DNA of 11,055 bases, from the IMG/VR virus record IMGVR_UViG_2695420804_000018. One strand, 5' to 3'. Source of the DNA: a virus (lineage: Duplodnaviria; Heunggongvirae; Uroviricota; Caudoviricetes). Under the pieces are notes generated by a model that saw nothing but the letters and a program-made list of their open reading frames with translations, had not been told where the DNA came from and ran no database searches. Numbering within the stretch: the stretch's first letter is position 1; every line of letters begins with the position of its first letter. Of the stretch, positions 1-11,055 are shown piece by piece. A program made the position numbers and the translations under genes.

Positions 1-483
1 ATGACGAAGAAAAAAGCACATAAACCTGGTTCAGCGACCATCGCGCTTAACAAGCGCGCCCGTCACGAATACTTTATCGAAGAAGAGTTCGAAGCGGGAC
101 TTGCCCTGCAAGGCTGGGAGGTTAAATCCCTGCGCGCAGGAAAAGCCAATATCAGCGACAGCTACGTCCTTCTGCGTGACGGAGAGGCATTTCTGTTTGG
201 CGCTAACATCACGCCAATGGCCGTGGCCTCCACGCATGTGGTGTGCGATCCTACCCGTACCCGCAAGTTACTTCTCAACCAGCGCGAACTGGACTCATTG
301 TACGGTCGCGTCAATCGAGAAGGCTATACCGTAGTGGCGCTCTCCCTGTACTGGAAAAATGCCTGGTGCAAAGTGAAAATCGGCGTCGCCAAAGGTAAAA
401 AACAGCACGATAAACGTTCAGATATCAAAGAACGCGAATGGCAGGTGGATAAAGCACGTATCATGAAAAACGCCCACCGTTAA
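1..483 (+). CDS. smpB: SsrA-binding protein SmpB
   Basis: 160-aa ORF ([25 protein letters not shown]...IMKNAHR) with TAA stop at 481-483; recognised from memory as enterobacterial SmpB; sits directly upstream of the tmRNA gene as in E. coli. Confidence 0.96.
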
Positions 484-646
484 ACCTGCACTCCAATTAT
501 TGACCAGTTCCTCACCGCGCCTCCCTCTCCGGCGGCGCGAATCAACATCTTATTGGCTATCACATCCGACACAAATGTTGCCATCCCATTGCTTAATCGA
601 ATAAAAATCAGGCTACATGGGTGCTAAATCTTTAACGATAACGCCA

Positions 647-683
647 TTGAGGCTGGTCATGGCGCTCATAAATCTGGTATACT
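647..683 (+). promoter_or_regulatory. putative ssrA promoter region (-10-like TATACT at 678-683)
   Basis: TATACT hexamer about 15 nt upstream of the mature tmRNA 5' end, consistent with a short 5' leader; a -35 element could not be placed with proper spacing, so this is tentative. Confidence 0.3.
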
Positions 684-697
684 TACCTTTACACATT

Positions 698-1060
698 GGG
701 GCTGATTCTGGATTCGACGGGATTTGCGAAACCCAAGGTGCATGCCGAGGGGCGGTTGGCCTCGTAAAAAGCCGCAAAAAATAGTCGCAAACGACGAAAA
801 CTACGCTTTAGCAGCTTAATAACCTGCTTAGAGCCCTCTCTCCCTAGCCTCCGCTCTTAGGACGGGGATCAAGAGAGGTCAAACCCAAAAGAGATCGCGT
901 GGAAGCCCTGCCTGGGGTTGAAGCGTTAAAACTTAATCAGGCTAGTTTGTTAGTGGCGTGTCCGTCCGCAGCTGGCAAGCGAATGTAAAGACTGACTAAG
1001 CATGTAGTACCGAGGATGTAGGAATTTCGGACGCGGGTTCAACTCCCGCCAGCTCCACCA
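698..1060 (+). ncRNA. ssrA: transfer-messenger RNA (tmRNA, 10Sa RNA), 363 nt
   Basis: Begins GGGGCTGATTCTGGATTCGACGGG and ends GGGTTCAACTCCCGCCAGCTCCACCA (tRNA-Ala-like acceptor/T-arm with encoded CCA); contains the canonical tag reading frame; matches E. coli tmRNA as I recall it. Confidence 0.97.
787..819 (+). other. tmRNA tag-peptide reading frame (ANDENYALAA + TAA)
   Basis: GCA AAC GAC GAA AAC TAC GCT TTA GCA GCT TAA read directly from the sequence; this is the SsrA degradation tag, starting at the GCA resume codon. Confidence 0.93.
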
Positions 1061-1189
1061 ATCATGATTGGACGGTGTAAGGACAACACCAACAAAAACA
1101 GGAAGTTAGCAGTCTCAGCAGGACACCGACCAGACGGTGAGGAGACAAAAAAGGATACGCAAAGGAGCCGCGGCTCTCAAGTGTGAAAG

Positions 1190-1217
1190 AAGCCCGCAAA
1201 TTGCGGGCTTTTTTATT
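1190..1217 (+). terminator. rho-independent terminator downstream of ssrA
   Basis: 8-bp stem AAGCCCGC / GCGGGCTT with a 5-nt loop, followed by TTTTATT. Confidence 0.65.
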
Positions 1218-1269
1218 GATCAGTCAACAATAAACAGTAACCGAATGAGAATTTAATAAGGATATTCAT

Positions 1270-2301
1270 ATGGAAGCTACTGTGGATTCGATTGATTTTC
1301 TGATCCGTAGTGAAGATGATTTTCTAAACTTTCTGGAAGAAATGAAAGCCCGAGAGGGGCTTGATTCTAAAGAGTTTATTTTCCCTAACGTAAAGTTTGC
1401 AGGCTGGCCATCCTTAGACATAAATGTAAAAGGAGAGCGGTATCATTCATCAATTACATCAGCAATGTTGTTTGGTATGTCAATGCTCAACGAGGAGATA
1501 CAGCGGGCGTTTGCAACCATACGATACGGATCGCAGAATCTTCAACGCTTGACTAATGAAGACAAGCAACGACTTGATATAAATTTTAAAATTAGCGAAG
1601 GTTCTAGTGATGCGGAAGGCACCACTGACAAGATCATCAACGCAGTAACTGATTTTTTGCGAGATACTATGTCTGGACTGAACGGCTGGCAGAAAATGCT
1701 TGTTATAATCACAATGGTTGGCGCGGCCAGCACATGTGGTTATCACTACATTTCAGAAAATGCCGTAACAGAAAGACATGCAACTGATCGGCAGGTTGAA
1801 ATTGCAAAAACCACATCCGATGGCATAAACAAAGCCATAGAAGCAACATTAGATTATAAAATCTATGGGAAATCAGCGATTAGCGATAAAGTTACTAGTC
1901 ACGGACAAGCAGGTAAAAGTGCTTTAGTGAAGCAATTAGCTGCTGATCCTACTGTCGAAACCGTGACTTTAGGAAATGAGAAACTAACACGACAAGACCT
2001 AAATACCTACAACAGCCGACAATCTGTAGATAGAGAACGTAAAGAACGAACTGATATATTTTCCATCAAAGGTGTAACCAGAACAGGGCCAACAAATCAG
2101 GATATTAATATTAACGTTGTTAGGGTCTCTAATGACGAATGCTTCACAATCAAAGCTTCAGCTGATGTTATCACCCAAGATGAGTTGACAGCTATTGTTG
2201 ACGCTTTGTCAAACAACTCTCATATTAAAATCAGTTACTTAGAGGTAATTGAAAAGGGTGCTGTTTCTATAGGTCAGTTCAACACTATTGTTTCAGAATA
2301 A
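1270..2301 (+). CDS. hypothetical protein, 343 aa, with a central hydrophobic segment; no family recognised
   Basis: Long ORF in AT-rich DNA (about 37% GC in the first 60 nt, counted by hand), where long open frames are unlikely by chance; AAGGA 7 nt upstream of ATG; residues ~143-161 (MLVIITMVGAASTCGYHYI) are hydrophobic; no Walker A, HEPN or other motif found by eye. Confidence 0.78.
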   Translation: MEATVDSIDFLIRSEDDFLNFLEEMKAREGLDSKEFIFPNVKFAGWPSLDINVKGERYHSSITSAMLFGMSMLNEEIQRAFATIRYGSQNLQRLTNEDKQRLDINFKISEGSSDAEGTTDKIINAVTDFLRDTMSGLNGWQKMLVIITMVGAASTCGYHYISENAVTERHATDRQVEIAKTTSDGINKAIEATLDYKIYGKSAISDKVTSHGQAGKSALVKQLAADPTVETVTLGNEKLTRQDLNTYNSRQSVDRERKERTDIFSIKGVTRTGPTNQDININVVRVSNDECFTIKASADVITQDELTAIVDALSNNSHIKISYLEVIEKGAVSIGQFNTIVSE

Positions 2302-2352
2302 TCACTTAACCCCATTTATGTCGGTTGAGGTTATAAGTCACGGAGACCAGAT

Positions 2353-2697
2353 ATGTCCTTAAAGTATGCACATGAAAAATTTCATACTGCAGTACTTACT
2401 CTTGCGGGCCATGGAAGTATTCAAGAACGCTTGATTAATTCGTATGTTTTTAGCCTTGGGCATCTTAAAACAGCCGATGATATTCCAAATGCCTTACAAA
2501 GCAGGTTCGATGAATTATGTAAGGAACTGACTAAGTTTGATGCCACTGGCGATGAGGGGCGAGTTCAAGCAACAGTATCAAAACTTAACGATTTCGAGAT
2601 CAATAAACTGATCGAAGATATTGTCAGTCTTAACGATGATATTTGCATGAAATTGGCTCTGACGGATGAGACTTACCAAGACATACACCAAAGTTAA
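2353..2697 (+). CDS. hypothetical small acidic protein, 114 aa; no family recognised
   Basis: Same strand as the upstream gene with a 51-bp gap; GGAG 7 nt upstream of ATG; same AT-rich composition; followed by a hairpin terminator. Confidence 0.7.
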   Translation: MSLKYAHEKFHTAVLTLAGHGSIQERLINSYVFSLGHLKTADDIPNALQSRFDELCKELTKFDATGDEGRVQATVSKLNDFEINKLIEDIVSLNDDICMKLALTDETYQDIHQS

Positions 2698-2724
2698 TTG
2701 ATTAAATTCAAAAAGTTAACGTTC

Positions 2725-2755
2725 AACCAGCCAGTTTTTGGCTGGTTTATTGTCT
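2725..2755. terminator. putative bidirectional hairpin terminator between convergent units
   Basis: AACCAGCCA-gtttt-TGGCTGGTT stem-loop with T-rich runs on both sides; lies between the + strand cassette and the - strand small ORF/invertase unit. Confidence 0.5.
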
Positions 2756-2781
2756 TATAATATTCTTGCTCGAATGATGCA

Positions 2782-2994
2782 CTATTTATGATGTAATCCG
2801 GACATCAGTTCATGGACAAGATTATCTCTTTCATTGTGTTGCAACCGTAAATGCATAGCAAAAAGGTGAGCACTATCCTCATTCCTCTTCAAGCCATGCT
2901 GTTCAAGATACCCGAAAAAACGGCTTCTCTTATCCGCTATTTCCTGAGTCTGACGTGCAACATTTACCAAATTTTCTAGCGTTTTTCTTGGCAT
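2782..2994 (-). CDS. small ORF downstream of invertase (first 63 codons conserved in both copies, then divergent tail); unknown function, possibly a 3'-truncated gene
   Basis: AGGAGG 8 nt upstream of ATG (reverse complement of 2995-3010); N-terminus MPRKTLENLVNVARQTQEIADKRSRFFGYLEQHGLKRNED...; the reading frame crosses the module boundary at 2807, so the C-terminus differs between copies. Confidence 0.45.
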   Translation of the reverse strand: MPRKTLENLVNVARQTQEIADKRSRFFGYLEQHGLKRNEDSAHLFAMHLRLQHNERDNLVHELMSGLHHK

Positions 2995-3192
2995 ACTATT
3001 TCCTCCTGAAATTGTTGTAATTCACTAGGATATTCATTTTAATTTGTATCATTTAGTACCAAAACCGCTATCAATTAACAAAGCCATCGTTGTGGTTTAC
3101 CTTGCAGCCGTTTTTTGTCATTGACTCTATGTGAAAATAATGAATCATCATGAGATTGGCTCACACGTTCTTGAATTCGACGAGCTGTGTCT

Positions 3193-3747
3193 TTATTTAT
3201 CTCCTGCCGGAAACCTCTGATACAAAGTCGATACGCCAACATCATAGATAATCGCAACTTTCTGGCGCGGAACTCCTGATGCAATTAATCGTCCGGCTTG
3301 TGCCCATTGTTCTGGTGTAAGTTTGGGACGACGTCCACCAATTCGTCCCTGTGCGCGAGCAGCTTCCAGTCCAGCTTTTGTTCGTTCAACAATCAGTTCT
3401 CGTTCCATTTCAGCCAGGGCCCCCATCACATGAAAGAAAAAGCGCCCCATTGGGGTACTGGTATCAATTGAATCCGTCAGACTACGAAAGTTGATGCCTC
3501 GTTCGCGCAACTCCTCCACCAGCACGACAAGATGCCGCATACTGCGCCCCAGTCGGTCCAGTTTCCAGACCACCAGCGTATCGCCTGCCGATAATGTCCT
3601 GAGCAGTTTTTTCAGTCCCGGCCTTTCGGACTTTGTACCGCTTATCTTGTCTTCAAAAATCAGCTCGCATCCTGCACAGTTCAGCGCATTACGTTGTAGA
3701 TCTGTGTTCTGGTCATTTGTTGACACACGTACATAGCCAATAAGCAT
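3193..3747 (-). CDS. site-specific DNA invertase, serine recombinase of the Gin/Hin/Pin/Cin family, 184 aa
   Basis: MLIGYVRVSTNDQNTDLQRNAL... gives the resolvase/invertase catalytic N-terminus with the active-site Ser in VRVST, plus a C-terminal HTH region (GVPRQKVAIIYDVGVSTLYQRF); start taken at MLIGY (AGGGAG upstream) rather than the upstream in-frame ATG of the ORF track; strongly resembles e14 Pin as I recall it. Confidence 0.93.
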   Translation of the reverse strand: MLIGYVRVSTNDQNTDLQRNALNCAGCELIFEDKISGTKSERPGLKKLLRTLSAGDTLVVWKLDRLGRSMRHLVVLVEELRERGINFRSLTDSIDTSTPMGRFFFHVMGALAEMERELIVERTKAGLEAARAQGRIGGRRPKLTPEQWAQAGRLIASGVPRQKVAIIYDVGVSTLYQRFPAGDK

Positions 3748-3801
3748 GGTAGATCTCCCTGACAAAAGCAGGAATGATGCCATTTGCTCGTTATTTCTGC
3801 A

Positions 3802-5557
<1,756 letters not shown>

Positions 5558-5560
5558 TCC

Positions 5561-6322
5561 ATGCATCGTATAGACACGAAAACCGCGCAGAAGGATAAGT
5601 TCGGCGCGGGTAAGAACGGTTTTACCCGTGGTAACCCCCAGACCGGCACACCTGCCACCGATCTGGATGATGACTACTTTGACATGTTGCAGGAAGAACT
5701 CTGCAGCGTGGTGGAGGCATCCGGTGCCAGCCTGGAGAAGGGGCGGCATGACCAGCTGCTTACCGCGCTTCGTGCGCTGCTGTTAAGCCGCAAGAATCCG
5801 TTTGGCGATATCAAATCTGATGGCACGGTGAAAACGGCTCTCGAAAACCTTGGTTTGGGAGAAGGTTCGGCATTACCCGTTGGTGTGCCTGTTCCGTGGC
5901 CTTCCGCCACTCCGCCAACGGGGTGGCTAAAATGTAACGGAGCAGTATTTTCTTCTGAAAAGTACCCAAATCTGGCAAAGGCTTACCCAACATTAAAATT
6001 ACCAGATTTACGCGGTGAATTTATTCGTGGCTGGGATGATGGGCGCGGGATTGACTCTGGTCGTAACTTATTATCTGCACAGAATGATGCAATTCAGAAT
6101 ATTGTTGGTTCTTTTGGGCGTACCCAGCTTTTTAGAGACGTACTTAGTTCAGGGCCATTTAGTCAACATGGGCAAGTATTATCTACAGGTCTAAAGGAAG
6201 CCGCAATTATTGAGGGTTATGGCGCTTATAACTGGACATTCGACGCATCTCGCTCAGTTCGCACAGCATCTGAAACCCGCTCCCGTAACATCGCCTTTAA
6301 TTATATTGTGAGGGCTGCATGA
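5561..6322 (+). CDS. phage tail-fibre protein: constant N-terminal domain (Sc, to about 5864) fused to variable C-terminal cassette Sv
   Basis: GGAG 6 nt upstream of ATG; [43 protein letters not shown]... is a typical tail-fibre N-terminal domain; a crossover site sits at the GLGE junction; the stop overlaps the start of the assembly gene (ATGA). Confidence 0.88.
5838..5863. other. hix/gix-like crossover site inside the tail-fibre gene (Sc/Sv junction)
   Basis: CTCTCGAAAACC-TT-GGTTTGGGAGAA; the reverse complement TTCTCCCAAACC-AA-GGTTTTCGAGAG matches hixL at about 19 of 26 positions; encodes ALENLGLGE. Confidence 0.75.
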
Positions 6323-6468
6323 TAAGTAAAGCTGTATTAAATAATGAACTCATCGCCACAAAGGCCGGAGACATTACCGTTTATAATTATGATGGTGAAA
6401 CACGGGAATATATTTCCACATCAACTGAATATCTTGCTGTGGGTGTTGGTATCCCGGCATGTTCCTGT
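5850..6468. repeat. 619-bp direct repeat (site inside half + Sv + U 5' part); partner is 9048-9666
   Basis: Offset 3198; identical ORF products (Sv and U codons 1-50). Confidence 0.85.
6319..6468 (+). pseudogene. tail-fibre assembly protein U, N-terminal 50 codons only, interrupted by pin module copy 2
   Basis: Identical to codons 1-50 of the full gene at 9517-10122; diverges at 6469 where the module begins. Confidence 0.75.
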
Positions 6469-6657
6469 AAGTTCATGGACAAGATTATCTCTTTCATTGT
6501 GTTGCAACCGTAAATGCATAGCAAAAAGGTGAGCACTATCCTCATTCCTCTTCAAGCCATGCTGTTCAAGATACCCGAAAAAACGGCTTCTCTTATCCGC
6601 TATTTCCTGAGTCTGACGTGCAACATTTACCAAATTTTCTAGCGTTTTTCTTGGCAT
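6421..6657 (-). CDS. small ORF downstream of invertase, copy 2 (same first 63 codons, different C-terminal tail)
   Basis: Same start and AGGAGG as copy 1; the tail (...TGTCRDTNTHSKIFS) comes from the reverse complement of U sequence beyond the module boundary. Confidence 0.4.
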   Translation of the reverse strand: MPRKTLENLVNVARQTQEIADKRSRFFGYLEQHGLKRNEDSAHLFAMHLRLQHNERDNLVHELTGTCRDTNTHSKIFS

Positions 6658-6855
6658 ACTATTTCCTCCTGAAATTGTTGTAATTCACTAGGATATTCAT
6701 TTTAATTTGTATCATTTAGTACCAAAACCGCTATCAATTAACAAAGCCATCGTTGTGGTTTACCTTGCAGCCGTTTTTTGTCATTGACTCTATGTGAAAA
6801 TAATGAATCATCATGAGATTGGCTCACACGTTCTTGAATTCGACGAGCTGTGTCT

Positions 6856-7410
6856 TTATTTATCTCCTGCCGGAAACCTCTGATACAAAGTCGATACGCC
6901 AACATCATAGATAATCGCAACTTTCTGGCGCGGAACTCCTGATGCAATTAATCGTCCGGCTTGTGCCCATTGTTCTGGTGTAAGTTTGGGACGACGTCCA
7001 CCAATTCGTCCCTGTGCGCGAGCAGCTTCCAGTCCAGCTTTTGTTCGTTCAACAATCAGTTCTCGTTCCATTTCAGCCAGGGCCCCCATCACATGAAAGA
7101 AAAAGCGCCCCATTGGGGTACTGGTATCAATTGAATCCGTCAGACTACGAAAGTTGATGCCTCGTTCGCGCAACTCCTCCACCAGCACGACAAGATGCCG
7201 CATACTGCGCCCCAGTCGGTCCAGTTTCCAGACCACCAGCGTATCGCCTGCCGATAATGTCCTGAGCAGTTTTTTCAGTCCCGGCCTTTCGGACTTTGTA
7301 CCGCTTATCTTGTCTTCAAAAATCAGCTCGCATCCTGCACAGTTCAGCGCATTACGTTGTAGATCTGTGTTCTGGTCATTTGTTGACACACGTACATAGC
7401 CAATAAGCAT
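6856..7410 (-). CDS. site-specific DNA invertase (Gin/Hin/Pin/Cin family), copy 2, 184 aa
   Basis: Identical to 3193-3747. Confidence 0.93.
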   Translation of the reverse strand: MLIGYVRVSTNDQNTDLQRNALNCAGCELIFEDKISGTKSERPGLKKLLRTLSAGDTLVVWKLDRLGRSMRHLVVLVEELRERGINFRSLTDSIDTSTPMGRFFFHVMGALAEMERELIVERTKAGLEAARAQGRIGGRRPKLTPEQWAQAGRLIASGVPRQKVAIIYDVGVSTLYQRFPAGDK

Positions 7411-7464
7411 GGTAGATCTCCCTGACAAAAGCAGGAATGATGCCATTTGCTCGTTATTTCTGCA

Positions 7465-7490
7465 TTTTCATAAACGTTGGTTTGGGAGAA
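7465..7490. other. hix/gix-like crossover site (invertase-proximal, copy 2)
   Basis: Same 26-bp sequence as 3802-3827; here it abuts the Sv' cassette. Confidence 0.7.
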
Positions 7491-7491
7491 G

Positions 7492-7931
7492 CGGCAAAAC
7501 GAAATGTGGGCAACGGGGAAAACCAAATCCCTGATATGTCTTTCTGGACGGTTACTGGTGGCAATGGAAATTTTGTGATTCGTCAACCTGACGGGCTAAT
7601 CATTCAGATGGTTACTGTAAGTATAAGCGGTCCAGTGGCGATGAATGGAATGACTGATAATGCTTATGCCATTACAGGTTCTAATAAGTCTTATATTGCC
7701 ACAGCCACATTGCCCTTTGTATTTCCTAATAAGGTGCTGGGCGTTATCCCTCTGGTATCAACAACAGCTTATGGTGGTGTATCCAGTAATATTACAGGTT
7801 CATACGCGACGGCGGTTTGTTCTTTTGCCGCTGTCAGGGGGAATAATACGATTGTGTTCAAAGTCGACAAACCACTGAATGCAGCCTTTCCTTCAGATAC
7901 CAGCGTCTCAGCGTTAATCATTGGACGGTAA
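7492..7931 (+). other. tail-fibre variable C-terminal cassette Sv' with no constant region upstream (silent cassette)
   Basis: Encodes [21 protein letters not shown]...ALIIGR, identical to the C-terminus of the - strand tail-fibre gene at 10540-10979; preceded by a crossover site instead of Sc. Confidence 0.7.
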
Positions 7932-7933
7932 GA

Positions 7934-8377
7934 ATGAACTCAGTATTCTTTTCACCCGCAAGTAAAAGTTTTTATCTGCAAGAATTGTTTCCAGAATATG
8001 AGGATGCGGGAACGCTTCCTGATGATGTTATTGAAATTACCAGAGAAACATATGAGCAATTTCTTGGGCTGCATCCAGAAGGGAAAGAAATTGGCGCTGA
8101 CAGTTCAGGACGGCCAATATGGATTAATTCCCCGCCGCCTTCAAAAGAGGATGAGATGCTGGCGGCTGAAATGAAAAAGATATCTTTGGTTTCAGAAGTC
8201 AATACCTACATCAATACCCATCAGTGGCCTGGCAAAGCTGCTATTGGTCGTCTGAAAGGTTACGAGCTGGAACAATATAATTTATGGCTGGATTATCTGG
8301 ACGCACTGGAACTGGTTGATACCTCCAGTGCTCCAGATATTGAATGGCCTACGCCTCCGGTAGTTCAGGCCAGATGA
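7934..8377 (+). CDS. tail-fibre assembly protein U' (alternative chaperone), 147 aa
   Basis: MNSVFFSPASKSF...; C-terminus LWLDYLDALELVDTSSAPDIEWPTPP is the conserved Tfa motif; identical to 10094-10537 on the opposite strand. Confidence 0.85.
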   Translation: MNSVFFSPASKSFYLQELFPEYEDAGTLPDDVIEITRETYEQFLGLHPEGKEIGADSSGRPIWINSPPPSKEDEMLAAEMKKISLVSEVNTYINTHQWPGKAAIGRLKGYELEQYNLWLDYLDALELVDTSSAPDIEWPTPPVVQAR

Positions 8378-8981
8378 CATCCGGCGCGGTGCTGGTATCT
8401 GTTGCAGTCACCGCGTCAATGTAATCCAGCACAGCGTTAAGCCGGGTTGTTTCTGCCTGCGTCAGCTTCCGCCCGGCCTGCAATTTCAGCTGAATCAGAC
8501 TAATGGAAGCCATAGCAGCATCAATCAGTGACTGGCGCCGTACTTCTGCCGCGTCTACTGCGGCGTTATGCTGTGCCTCAGTATCGGTCACCCATTTCTC
8601 ACCATCCCATTTATCGTATGACGTTAACGGGGCGATAGTGGTTGTATTTTCAGGACCCATCACATGAAAGAAAAAGCGCCCCATTGGGGTACTGGTATCA
8701 ATTGAATCCGTCAGACTACGAAAGTTGATGCCTCGTTCGCGCAACTCCTCCACCAGCACGACAAGATGCCGCATACTGCGCCCCAGTCGGTCCAGTTTCC
8801 AGACCACCAGCGTATCGCCTGCCGATAATGTCCTGAGCAGTTTTTTCAGTCCCGGCCTTTCGGACTTTGTACCGCTTATCTTGTCTTCAAAAATCAGCTC
8901 GCATCCTGCACAGTTCAGCGCATTACGTTGTAGATCTGTGTTCTGGTCATTTGTTGACACACGTACATAGCCAATAAGCAT
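8349..8981 (-). pseudogene. chimeric ORF: invertase codons 1-109 fused in frame to tail-fibre assembly protein U codons 101-201
   Basis: ...MGRFFFHVMG | PENTTTIAPLTSYDKWDGEKW...WPELPEA; nucleotide junction at 8655/8656 with short CAGG-type microhomology; lacks the invertase C-terminal HTH. Confidence 0.7.
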
Positions 8982-9062
8982 GGTAGATCTCCCTGACAAA
9001 AGCAGGAATGATGCCATTTGCTCGTTATTTCTGCATTTTCATAAACGTTGGTTTGGGAGAAG
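8656..9062. repeat. pin module partial copy 3 (407 bp: invertase 5' part, upstream region, crossover site)
   Basis: Identical by eye to 3422-3828 and 7085-7491. Confidence 0.88.
9036..9061. other. hix/gix-like crossover site (invertase-proximal, copy 3)
   Basis: Same sequence as 3802-3827; here it abuts the Sv cassette. Confidence 0.7.
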
Positions 9063-9520
9063 GTTCGGCATTACCCGTTGGTGTGCCTGTTCCGTGGCCT
9101 TCCGCCACTCCGCCAACGGGGTGGCTAAAATGTAACGGAGCAGTATTTTCTTCTGAAAAGTACCCAAATCTGGCAAAGGCTTACCCAACATTAAAATTAC
9201 CAGATTTACGCGGTGAATTTATTCGTGGCTGGGATGATGGGCGCGGGATTGACTCTGGTCGTAACTTATTATCTGCACAGAATGATGCAATTCAGAATAT
9301 TGTTGGTTCTTTTGGGCGTACCCAGCTTTTTAGAGACGTACTTAGTTCAGGGCCATTTAGTCAACATGGGCAAGTATTATCTACAGGTCTAAAGGAAGCC
9401 GCAATTATTGAGGGTTATGGCGCTTATAACTGGACATTCGACGCATCTCGCTCAGTTCGCACAGCATCTGAAACCCGCTCCCGTAACATCGCCTTTAATT
9501 ATATTGTGAGGGCTGCATGA
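9063..9520 (+). other. tail-fibre variable C-terminal cassette Sv, second copy, without constant region
   Basis: Identical to 5865-6322 ([21 protein letters not shown]...IVRAA). Confidence 0.7.
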
Positions 9521-10122
9521 TAAGTAAAGCTGTATTAAATAATGAACTCATCGCCACAAAGGCCGGAGACATTACCGTTTATAATTATGATGGTGAAACA
9601 CGGGAATATATTTCCACATCAACTGAATATCTTGCTGTGGGTGTTGGTATCCCGGCATGTTCCTGTTTAGATGCTCCTGGCTCATATAAAGCTGGTTATG
9701 CAATTTGCCGTTCTGCAGATTTTAACTCATGGGAATATGTGCCAGACCATCGCGGTGAAATCGTCTATAGCACCGAAACAGGAGAATCAAAAGAAATCAC
9801 ACTTCCGGGTGATTACCCTGAAAATACAACCACTATCGCCCCGTTAACGTCATACGATAAATGGGATGGTGAGAAATGGGTGACCGATACTGAGGCACAG
9901 CATAACGCCGCAGTAGACGCGGCAGAAGTACGGCGCCAGTCACTGATTGATGCTGCTATGGCTTCCATTAGTCTGATTCAGCTGAAATTGCAGGCCGGGC
10001 GGAAGCTGACGCAGGCAGAAACAACCCGGCTTAACGCTGTGCTGGATTACATTGACGCGGTGACTGCAACAGATACCAGCACCGCGCCGGATGTCATCTG
10101 GCCTGAACTACCGGAGGCGTAG
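9517..10122 (+). CDS. tail-fibre assembly protein U, full length, 201 aa
   Basis: [27 protein letters not shown]...; C-terminal Tfa motif LDYIDAVTATDTSTAPDVIWPELPE; start overlaps the Sv stop (ATGA); 3' end overlaps convergent U' by 29 bp. Confidence 0.9.
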   Translation: MISKAVLNNELIATKAGDITVYNYDGETREYISTSTEYLAVGVGIPACSCLDAPGSYKAGYAICRSADFNSWEYVPDHRGEIVYSTETGESKEITLPGDYPENTTTIAPLTSYDKWDGEKWVTDTEAQHNAAVDAAEVRRQSLIDAAMASISLIQLKLQAGRKLTQAETTRLNAVLDYIDAVTATDTSTAPDVIWPELPEA

Positions 10123-10979
10123 GCCATTCAATATCTGGAGCACTGGAGGTATCAACCAGTTCCAGTGCGTCCAGATAATCCAGCCATAAATTATATTGTT
10201 CCAGCTCGTAACCTTTCAGACGACCAATAGCAGCTTTGCCAGGCCACTGATGGGTATTGATGTAGGTATTGACTTCTGAAACCAAAGATATCTTTTTCAT
10301 TTCAGCCGCCAGCATCTCATCCTCTTTTGAAGGCGGCGGGGAATTAATCCATATTGGCCGTCCTGAACTGTCAGCGCCAATTTCTTTCCCTTCTGGATGC
10401 AGCCCAAGAAATTGCTCATATGTTTCTCTGGTAATTTCAATAACATCATCAGGAAGCGTTCCCGCATCCTCATATTCTGGAAACAATTCTTGCAGATAAA
10501 AACTTTTACTTGCGGGTGAAAAGAATACTGAGTTCATTCTTACCGTCCAATGATTAACGCTGAGACGCTGGTATCTGAAGGAAAGGCTGCATTCAGTGGT
10601 TTGTCGACTTTGAACACAATCGTATTATTCCCCCTGACAGCGGCAAAAGAACAAACCGCCGTCGCGTATGAACCTGTAATATTACTGGATACACCACCAT
10701 AAGCTGTTGTTGATACCAGAGGGATAACGCCCAGCACCTTATTAGGAAATACAAAGGGCAATGTGGCTGTGGCAATATAAGACTTATTAGAACCTGTAAT
10801 GGCATAAGCATTATCAGTCATTCCATTCATCGCCACTGGACCGCTTATACTTACAGTAACCATCTGAATGATTAGCCCGTCAGGTTGACGAATCACAAAA
10901 TTTCCATTGCCACCAGTAACCGTCCAGAAAGACATATCAGGGATTTGGTTTTCCCCGTTGCCCACATTTCGTTTTGCCG
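9816..10979. repeat. right arm of the 1164-bp inverted repeat
   Basis: Reverse complement of 7492-8655. Confidence 0.85.
10094..10537 (-). CDS. tail-fibre assembly protein U', 147 aa
   Basis: Reverse-complement copy of 7934-8377; lies downstream of the - strand tail-fibre gene. Confidence 0.88.
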   Translation of the reverse strand: MNSVFFSPASKSFYLQELFPEYEDAGTLPDDVIEITRETYEQFLGLHPEGKEIGADSSGRPIWINSPPPSKEDEMLAAEMKKISLVSEVNTYINTHQWPGKAAIGRLKGYELEQYNLWLDYLDALELVDTSSAPDIEWPTPPVVQAR

Positions 10980-11055
10980 CTTCTCCCAAACCAAGGTTTT
11001 CGAGAGCCGTTTTCACCGTGCCATCAGATTTGATATCGCCAAACGGATTCTTGCG
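10540..11055 (-). CDS. phage tail-fibre protein (Sc + Sv'), 5' end beyond the window edge
   Basis: C-terminal Sv' cassette joined through a crossover site to the same constant-region sequence as 5789-5864 (...[21 protein letters not shown]); the ATG at 11016 in the ORF track is internal. Confidence 0.85.
10981..11006. other. hix/gix-like crossover site in inverted orientation (Sc/Sv' junction of the - strand gene)
   Basis: TTCTCCCAAACC-AA-GGTTTTCGAGAG, the exact reverse complement of the site at 5838-5863. Confidence 0.75.

Follow-up and report, generated by a model that had tools for sequence, protein, structure and literature searches.

Genes and features of the window

The window, by which we mean the whole 11,055-nucleotide stretch analysed here (IMG/VR virus record IMGVR_UViG_2695420804_000018, Caudoviricetes), opens with smpB (1-483) and the tmRNA gene ssrA (698-1060), after which a prophage remnant begins. 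The approximately 120 bp that follow ssrA (1062-1181) are common to the best-matching E. coli genomes and homology ends at about 1181, which marks the left edge of an AT-rich cargo block. Between ssrA and the gene of interest to us lie two AT-rich genes on the plus strand, encoding proteins of 343 (1270-2301) and 114 (2353-2697) amino acids. The 343-aa gene matches PHROG 6191 only, a family of unknown function, and neither gene has a match in Pfam, NCBIfam or PADLOC.

Our gene of interest occupies positions 2782-2994 of the minus strand and encodes a protein of 70 amino acids that starts with MPRKT and ends with HELMSGLHHK; the stop codon is TAA (2782-2784). This protein is identical to WP_001137529.1, and RefSeq annotates the 213-bp coding sequence at the same locus in complete genomes as a hypothetical protein. 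The gene converges with the 114-aa gene, and between the two lies a GC-rich hairpin (2725-2747) that was called as terminator-like on the plus strand. On the minus strand the hairpin is located 35 nt past the stop codon of the 70-aa gene, which it may also serve as a terminator. Upstream of the small gene, on the same strand, is pinE (3193-3747), a serine invertase with the Pfam domains Resolvase and HTH_7 (RefSeq WP_000904997.1). Adjoining pinE is a crossover site of 26 bp (3802-3827, TTTTCATAAACG TT GGTTTGGGAGAA), the 20-bp core of which recurs inverted at the far end of an invertible segment; the extent of 26 bp and the central TT were assigned by analogy with invertase crossover sites.

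Part of this region appears twice in the window. A perfect direct repeat of 1,022 bp, 100% identical, joins positions 2807-3828 to positions 6470-7491 and contains part of the small gene, the serine invertase gene (Resolvase and HTH_7) and the crossover site. The second copy of the small gene belongs to a different open reading frame (6421-6657, minus strand) of 78 amino acids, ending in ...HELTGTCRDTNTHSKIFS. The two frames have 188 nt in common, that is 62 codons and two nucleotides of a leucine codon. Codon 63 reads CTG in copy 1 and, in the letters of the window, CTA in copy 2, which gives 63 identical residues, and past these the tails are MSGLHHK in copy 1 and TGTCRDTNTHSKIFS in copy 2.

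Composition of the source record

The window corresponds, less 2 nt, to the last 11,055 bp of the draft contig CXZN01000041.1 (assembly GCA_001284765.1), and an exact-protein look-up of the 78-aa chimera matched the same contig. Only three mismatches separate the window from this contig: at positions 3829, 6469 and 8655 the record has 'N' and the window 'A'. BLAST comparison with the native loci of complete genomes divides the window at these same places into four pieces, each 99.9-100% collinear with the native locus and separated from the next by exactly one unaligned base, which is always 'A'. Piece 1 (1-3828) is in forward orientation; piece 2 (3830-6468) is reversed and runs from the interior of the IS3 transposase gene to the interior of the tail-fibre-assembly gene tfaE; piece 3 (6470-8654, forward) runs from the interior of the small gene to the interior of tfaE; and piece 4 (8656-11055, forward) begins within pin. 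In native-locus coordinates the four pieces overlap one another. Because they overlap collinearly and the bases at their junctions are N, the window is a scaffold in which single-N gaps connect four redundant contigs of one locus.

Any open reading frame or repeat boundary that touches 3829, 6469 or 8655 is consequently an artefact. This applies to one full and one partial copy of the invertase gene out of three, to the 78-aa frame, to a 222-aa fusion of pin and tfa (8349-9017) that the gap at 8655 creates, and to a truncated transposase frame ending at 3805. The gap at 6469 falls within codon 63 of the copy 2 frame (CTN, leucine in every case). Codons 1-62 of that frame are the redundant contig copy of the small gene, and the last 15 codons, which form its tail, correspond to the first third of tfaE in the neighbouring contig, read in antisense. 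Copy 2 has thus lost the last seven native residues; L63 is kept and M-S-G is replaced by T-G-T.

The invertible segment is oriented as in strain 602687 in piece 3 and as in strain CD45 in piece 4. Both orientations are therefore present in one scaffold, which shows that the sequenced culture was a mixture holding both inversion states of the Pin-invertible tail-fibre segment. Alternative paths through both inversion states were thus assembled and then chained with single-N gaps, as scaffolding software may insert one N between linked contigs that should lie end to end. This chaining generated two full and one partial copy of pin together with two apparent copies of the small gene, the second of which crosses the gap at 6469 and enters antisense tfa sequence.

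Complete genomes give the same picture of which copy is native. The arrangement of copy 1 (114-aa gene, small gene, invertase) is found in 46 of 5,426 complete E. coli genomes, once in each, at full length and with 99.7-100% identity. A sensitive nucleotide search of the same 5,426 genomes recovered the complete reading frame, native 3' end included, as a single copy in each of the 46, at an identity of at least 99.1%, and no diverged copies of the small gene. The junction of copy 2 (6250-6750) was present in none of the 5,426 genomes and had no match in IMG/VR or among the GTDB species representatives. Copy 1 is the native form, and two copies with different tails are not a feature of a real genome. 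The initial annotation had described one N-terminus with two tails; this is correct for the letters of the window, where 63 residues are identical, but does not hold as a property of a genome, position 6469 being an N. Its premise of a gene present twice, each time with another end, reflects the assembly (N at the junctions, collinear redundant pieces). One of its two proposals for the native gene, a short gene that stops just past the boundary, was essentially accurate, since the protein of 70 amino acids ends seven codons beyond it, as in copy 1.

The identity of the two copies could also be explained by a real event in which pin and the small gene were copied in vivo into the tail-fibre-assembly gene, where the small gene acquired a new tail, by aberrant Pin recombination, IS3-mediated rearrangement or template switching during replication. 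An IS3-family element is present in the locus, copies that are 100% identical are what a recent event would leave, and serine invertases of this group, such as Cin, use quasi-sites at low frequency. However, the source record has N at all three junctions, none of them coincides with the central dinucleotide of a crossover site or with an IS end, piece 2 begins within the transposase gene, no other genome contains any of these junctions, and the pieces, among which both inversion states occur, overlap in the manner of redundant contigs from one locus. We consider a real duplication highly improbable. Two specific origins of the junctions were discarded: Pin recombination at pseudo-sites, as no junction lies at the central dinucleotide of the 26-bp site and Ns were found, and a long read made chimeric by ligation of A-tailed fragments, as the three 'orphan A' bases had suggested, because the source shows N. 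Taken as a whole, the best explanation is that there is one real gene and that the second tail is a scaffold artefact, to which we assign a probability of roughly 0.88.

The native locus and its inversion switch

In strains 602687 (NZ_CP189657.1, 3603816-3611700), CD45 and 042 the native order is smpB, ssrA, the 343-aa and 114-aa genes on one strand, the 70-aa gene and pinE on the opposite strand, and then the invertible tail-fibre segment with a crossover site at each end, beyond which come the tail fibre's constant part, ymfQ and an element of the IS3 family. CD45 and 602687 are inverted relative to each other between the two crossover sites. The two orientations can be compared in the scaffold pieces 6470-8654 and 8656-11055, and the same inversion separates the CD45 and 602687 loci (L002 and L003, 9829-11745); the presence of both orientations in the scaffold, together with the inversion between these strains, indicates that the switch is active in a small prophage remnant. 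This remnant measures approximately 5.8 kb and adjoins ssrA. In the native locus of CD45 and 602687, as in the window (3830-4997, 4998-5557), the IS3-family element interrupts ymfQ (Mu gp48-like), and a ypjA remnant lies beyond the element, the prophage being cut down to about 5.8 kb in both strains. E. coli 042 carries at the same site a frameshifted invertase and a long lambdoid prophage.

A separate record, NZ_CP148395.1 (L015), contains the same genes in 2,637 bp and was deposited as a complete circular plasmid. It equals the window from 3813 to 1177 and holds pinE and the 70-, 114- and 343-aa genes and nothing more. One of its ends abuts the central dinucleotide of the crossover site, and the strain has no chromosomal copy. 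The reciprocal deletion junction expected for such a circle, searched for as built with the state-A flank only, was not present in any genome. NZ_CP148395.1 may be either an assembly artefact or an excised circle.

A small family of short proteins

A word-indexed search of 5.8 billion proteins returned only sequences nearly identical to the 70-aa protein. The same sequence as copy 1 (WP_001137529.1) is also named in Salmonella Derby, and WP_021530619.1 of E. coli 042 differs from it by one residue (Y29D); both occupy the position of copy 1, between the 114-aa gene and pinE with ssrA nearby. Diverged relatives were retrieved by exhaustive HMMER comparison with 1.84 billion representative sequences, which identified proteins of 67, 70, 73, 76 and 70 amino acids with 40-58% identity, and a profile search enlarged the set to 17 clusters, with members in Pantoea, Citrobacter, Scandinavium and Escherichia sp. 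Together the exhaustive searches identified about 15 diverged relatives, all in Enterobacterales, with real lengths of about 67-76 amino acids; longer entries of 74, 90 and 96 amino acids are N-terminal over-calls and one of 84 amino acids has a drifted C-terminus. A tblastn search of 50,697 phage records gave no match to the small protein, and among plasmids the sole match was the 2,637-bp E. coli record described above.

Eight columns of the family alignment are invariant (A13, L30, A42, A46, R56, L59, V60 and L63) and three more are conserved in at least 90% of the members (R23, E39 and M64); copy 1 has all of them. S-G is common after M64, and many members stop directly after L-M-S-G-[FI]. 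The contig boundary cuts exactly through this conserved C-terminal LMSG motif, so that copy 1 has the motif and copy 2 does not. In length, in conserved columns and in its outer position in the prophage, copy 1 agrees with the other members of the family (P0001 and P0004-P0018). The protein therefore belongs to a small unnamed family with a real length of about 67-76 amino acids that occurs only at prophage ends in Enterobacterales.

These lengths bear directly on a second proposal of the initial annotation, according to which the two copies are what 3' truncation left of a larger gene that formerly lay behind the invertase. The reading frame does span the repeat boundary in both copies, which is the observation from which the proposal came. 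Nevertheless, the relatives are free-standing proteins of 67-76 amino acids that keep the C-terminus (L63, M64, S, G) and stop 0-12 residues past the LMSG motif, no longer protein carries the shared segment, and copy 1 is intact in 46 genomes. The sole long match, P0008 (1,959 amino acids), aligns in seven stretches at 28% identity, is repetitive and is probably spurious. The full-length homologues retrieved by the exhaustive search have real lengths of about 67-76 amino acids, and an invertase adjoins none of the nine relative loci examined. The small gene is not a fragment of a larger one, and an origin by truncation has a negligible probability in our assessment.

Coding and expression signals

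A Shine-Dalgarno sequence, AGGAGG (3002-3007, minus strand), precedes the ATG of the small gene by 7 nt, and a purine-rich element is found at the same place in all seven aligned loci. Further upstream, approximately 33 nt before the ATG, is a -10-like hexamer, TATCCT (3028-3033, minus strand), which fits TAnnnT; in an alignment of 110 bp of upstream sequence the T, the A and the final T are invariant in the seven loci. A consensus promoter scan called no promoter on the strand of the small gene because there is no good -35 element. The same scan found no terminator between pin and the small gene, and read-through transcription from pin into the small gene is possible in this lineage. No known RNA family was found to overlap the region of the small reading frame.

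Selection was examined in eight sequences representing seven sequence types with DNA available, of which the window and 042 are one residue apart. In each of the 28 pairs pN was clearly lower than pS, with pN of 0.16-0.45 and pS of 0.50-1.0 between family members. pS is mostly saturated, and in the 11 pairs for which dN/dS could be computed it ranged from 0.09 to 0.48. The family is under purifying selection.

Could the frame be one that is open by chance in AT-rich intergenic DNA and that annotation pipelines have propagated? Its very narrow distribution, the lack of any Pfam, NCBIfam, PHROG or PADLOC family and the failure of the consensus scan to call a promoter would agree with such an origin. 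On the other hand, frame, length, start, Shine-Dalgarno sequence and C-terminal motif are kept across genera at 40-58% identity, pN is well under pS and the structure model is confident, so we regard a chance frame as most improbable. Judged by its sequence, the small open reading frame is a real gene, as the initial annotation had argued from the AGGAGG before the ATG; the position of this element 7 nt upstream, the purine-rich Shine-Dalgarno sequence in 7 of 7 loci and the lower pN in 28 of 28 pairs bear that argument out.

Genomic context of the relatives and the link to the invertase

In the window and in the 46 genomes the small gene is found in a prophage or prophage remnant, at the end nearest ssrA. 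We examined the loci of nine relatives (L004-L013), which represent seven distinct contexts, and in these the small gene is the outermost gene on the phage side: tail-fibre or tail-spike genes and cargo precede it, and host genes lie beyond. The cargo near the relatives includes genes for SRAP/YedK-like proteins, DinI, UmuDC, Abi, an acyltransferase and an EAL protein. A conserved partnership with the convergent 114-aa gene was rejected, the gene of 114 amino acids beside the relative at L011 being unrelated.

Another possibility is that the small gene is co-transcribed with pin and that its product assists the Pin system, where it might regulate the frequency of inversion or couple inversion to another process, and a tie to the invertase was implicit in the initial annotation. 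This tie did not survive the examination of the relatives: an invertase adjoins the small gene at none of the nine loci (0/9), and L008 offers no more than an HTH_7 remnant approximately 4 kb away. pinE is the upstream neighbour of the small gene in the lineage of the window only. The GC content is 50% in pin and falls to 35-40% at its stop codon (40% in the small gene, 39-40% in the 343- and 114-aa cargo genes), and the gene has a -10-like element and a Shine-Dalgarno sequence of its own. Inversion by Gin, Hin, Cin and Pin needs only the invertase, Fis and an enhancer inside the invertase gene. A role as accessory factor of Pin is thus very unlikely. We infer instead that the small gene is a 'moron', an accessory gene of the prophage that would be expressed independently, from its own signals, and would have no part in the inversion switch. 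RefSeq already lists its product as a hypothetical protein; the gene is real but of an ordinary kind. A search of the literature for the protein accessions and the source assembly found nothing.

Several further observations concern the ends of these prophages. A fragment of approximately 50 nt from the 3' end of a tRNA, which we take to be tRNA-Pro, lies in antisense about 90 bp upstream of three relatives (L004, ~5850-5910; L007, ~4860-4910; L012, ~4950-5000). L005 has in place of the tRNA fragment a ~28-nt fragment of the 3' end of ssrA (263-334, Rfam E = 0.002). ARAGORN identified no complete tRNA, and L011 and the window may hold degenerate versions of the tRNA fragment. The tRNA and ssrA fragments look like copies of attachment sites, in an arrangement that is at odds with a simple prophage end. 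Approximately 130 bp past the stop codon, three relatives from different genera have in common a conserved block, ...TGGCGAAAAA...ATAACACGC[AG]TGATTTAAA (L004, ~6330-6354; L011, ~5330-5354; L012, ~5420-5441), which may belong to an arm of an attachment site. In Citrobacter portucalensis (L011), immediately downstream of the relative, Rfam gives a weak hit to STnc130, an enterobacterial sRNA, at positions 5438-5564 of the minus strand (36 bits against a gathering score of 55, E = 0.07).

Properties of the protein

The 70-aa protein contains no cysteine, is mildly basic (pI ~9.4) and hydrophilic (GRAVY -0.9). AlphaFold2 models it as a helical hairpin or three-helix structure with a pLDDT of 80-82, and its predicted fold is that of a small helical bundle. 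Searches with this protein and 15 family members placed it in no family of Pfam, NCBIfam, PHROGs or PADLOC: no hit had an E-value under 0.02, and none of the families was matched by more than one of the 15 members. PADLOC profiles of known anti-phage defence systems gave no match at E <= 1 to the protein or to its 343- and 114-aa neighbours. The best hit of a profile search against PDB sequences, a cytochrome P450 at E = 0.075, is noise. The product would be a soluble, mildly basic, small helical protein and may act through binding another macromolecule, either protein or DNA.

Candidate functions were compared with these properties. An excisionase or recombination directionality factor (Xis, AlpA or TorI, with a winged-helix or MerR-type helix-turn-helix) was rejected, as the 15 members have no Pfam match, the model is all-helical and lacks a beta wing, and the one member that matched an excisionase PHROG did so at E = 0.15, which is noise. 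The possibility that the protein is an att-proximal one resembling the core-binding domain of a recombinase (SAM-like, as in tyrosine recombinases such as Cre, XerD and IntI) we judge to be quite unlikely.

Comparison with known systems

The placement of com and mom after gin in Mu and of mcrA after pin in e14 offers a parallel to the locus of the window, but the likeness consists of the position downstream of a Gin/Pin-type invertase only. Neither Mu com/mom nor e14 mcrA has sequence or domain similarity to the 70-aa protein, and the relatives of the small gene, unlike com/mom and mcrA, are not tied to invertases. A Mu Com-type activator (a Cys4 zinc finger of ~62 amino acids encoded upstream of mom) was rejected, as the protein has no cysteine and no Pfam match and no mom-like gene follows the small gene; so was an McrA/HNH nuclease (~277 amino acids), as the protein has 70 amino acids and no HNH, Pfam or NCBIfam match. 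That the protein would be neither McrA-like nor Com-like had been anticipated in the initial annotation, and the missing cysteine and the lack of a Pfam, NCBIfam, PHROG or PADLOC match agree with it.

DinI-type morons resemble the small gene in size, position and autonomy. They too are small, soluble and free-standing, have their own expression signals and lie at the tail-fibre end of lambdoid prophages with a GC content below that of the structural genes, and DinI itself is a frequent neighbour of the relatives. The small protein differs from them in that it shares homology with neither DinI nor any of the named moron families, and by eye we saw no LexA box upstream of its gene. As a family without a Pfam or PHROG entry it is of modest interest to those who catalogue prophage cargo.

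The two apparent copies find their counterpart in the scaffold artefacts that short-read drafts show at invertible DNA. Single-N gaps rendered as a base call for caution, as they can produce false duplications, false alternative C-termini and false fusion frames, and in draft assemblies this happens at the invertible segments of phages. Invertible DNA is a documented problem for assembly, since the DNA stems from a mixed population (PMC4670535). The window is like such drafts in its single-N joins, its redundant overlapping contigs, the presence of both inversion states and its location at the end of a contig.
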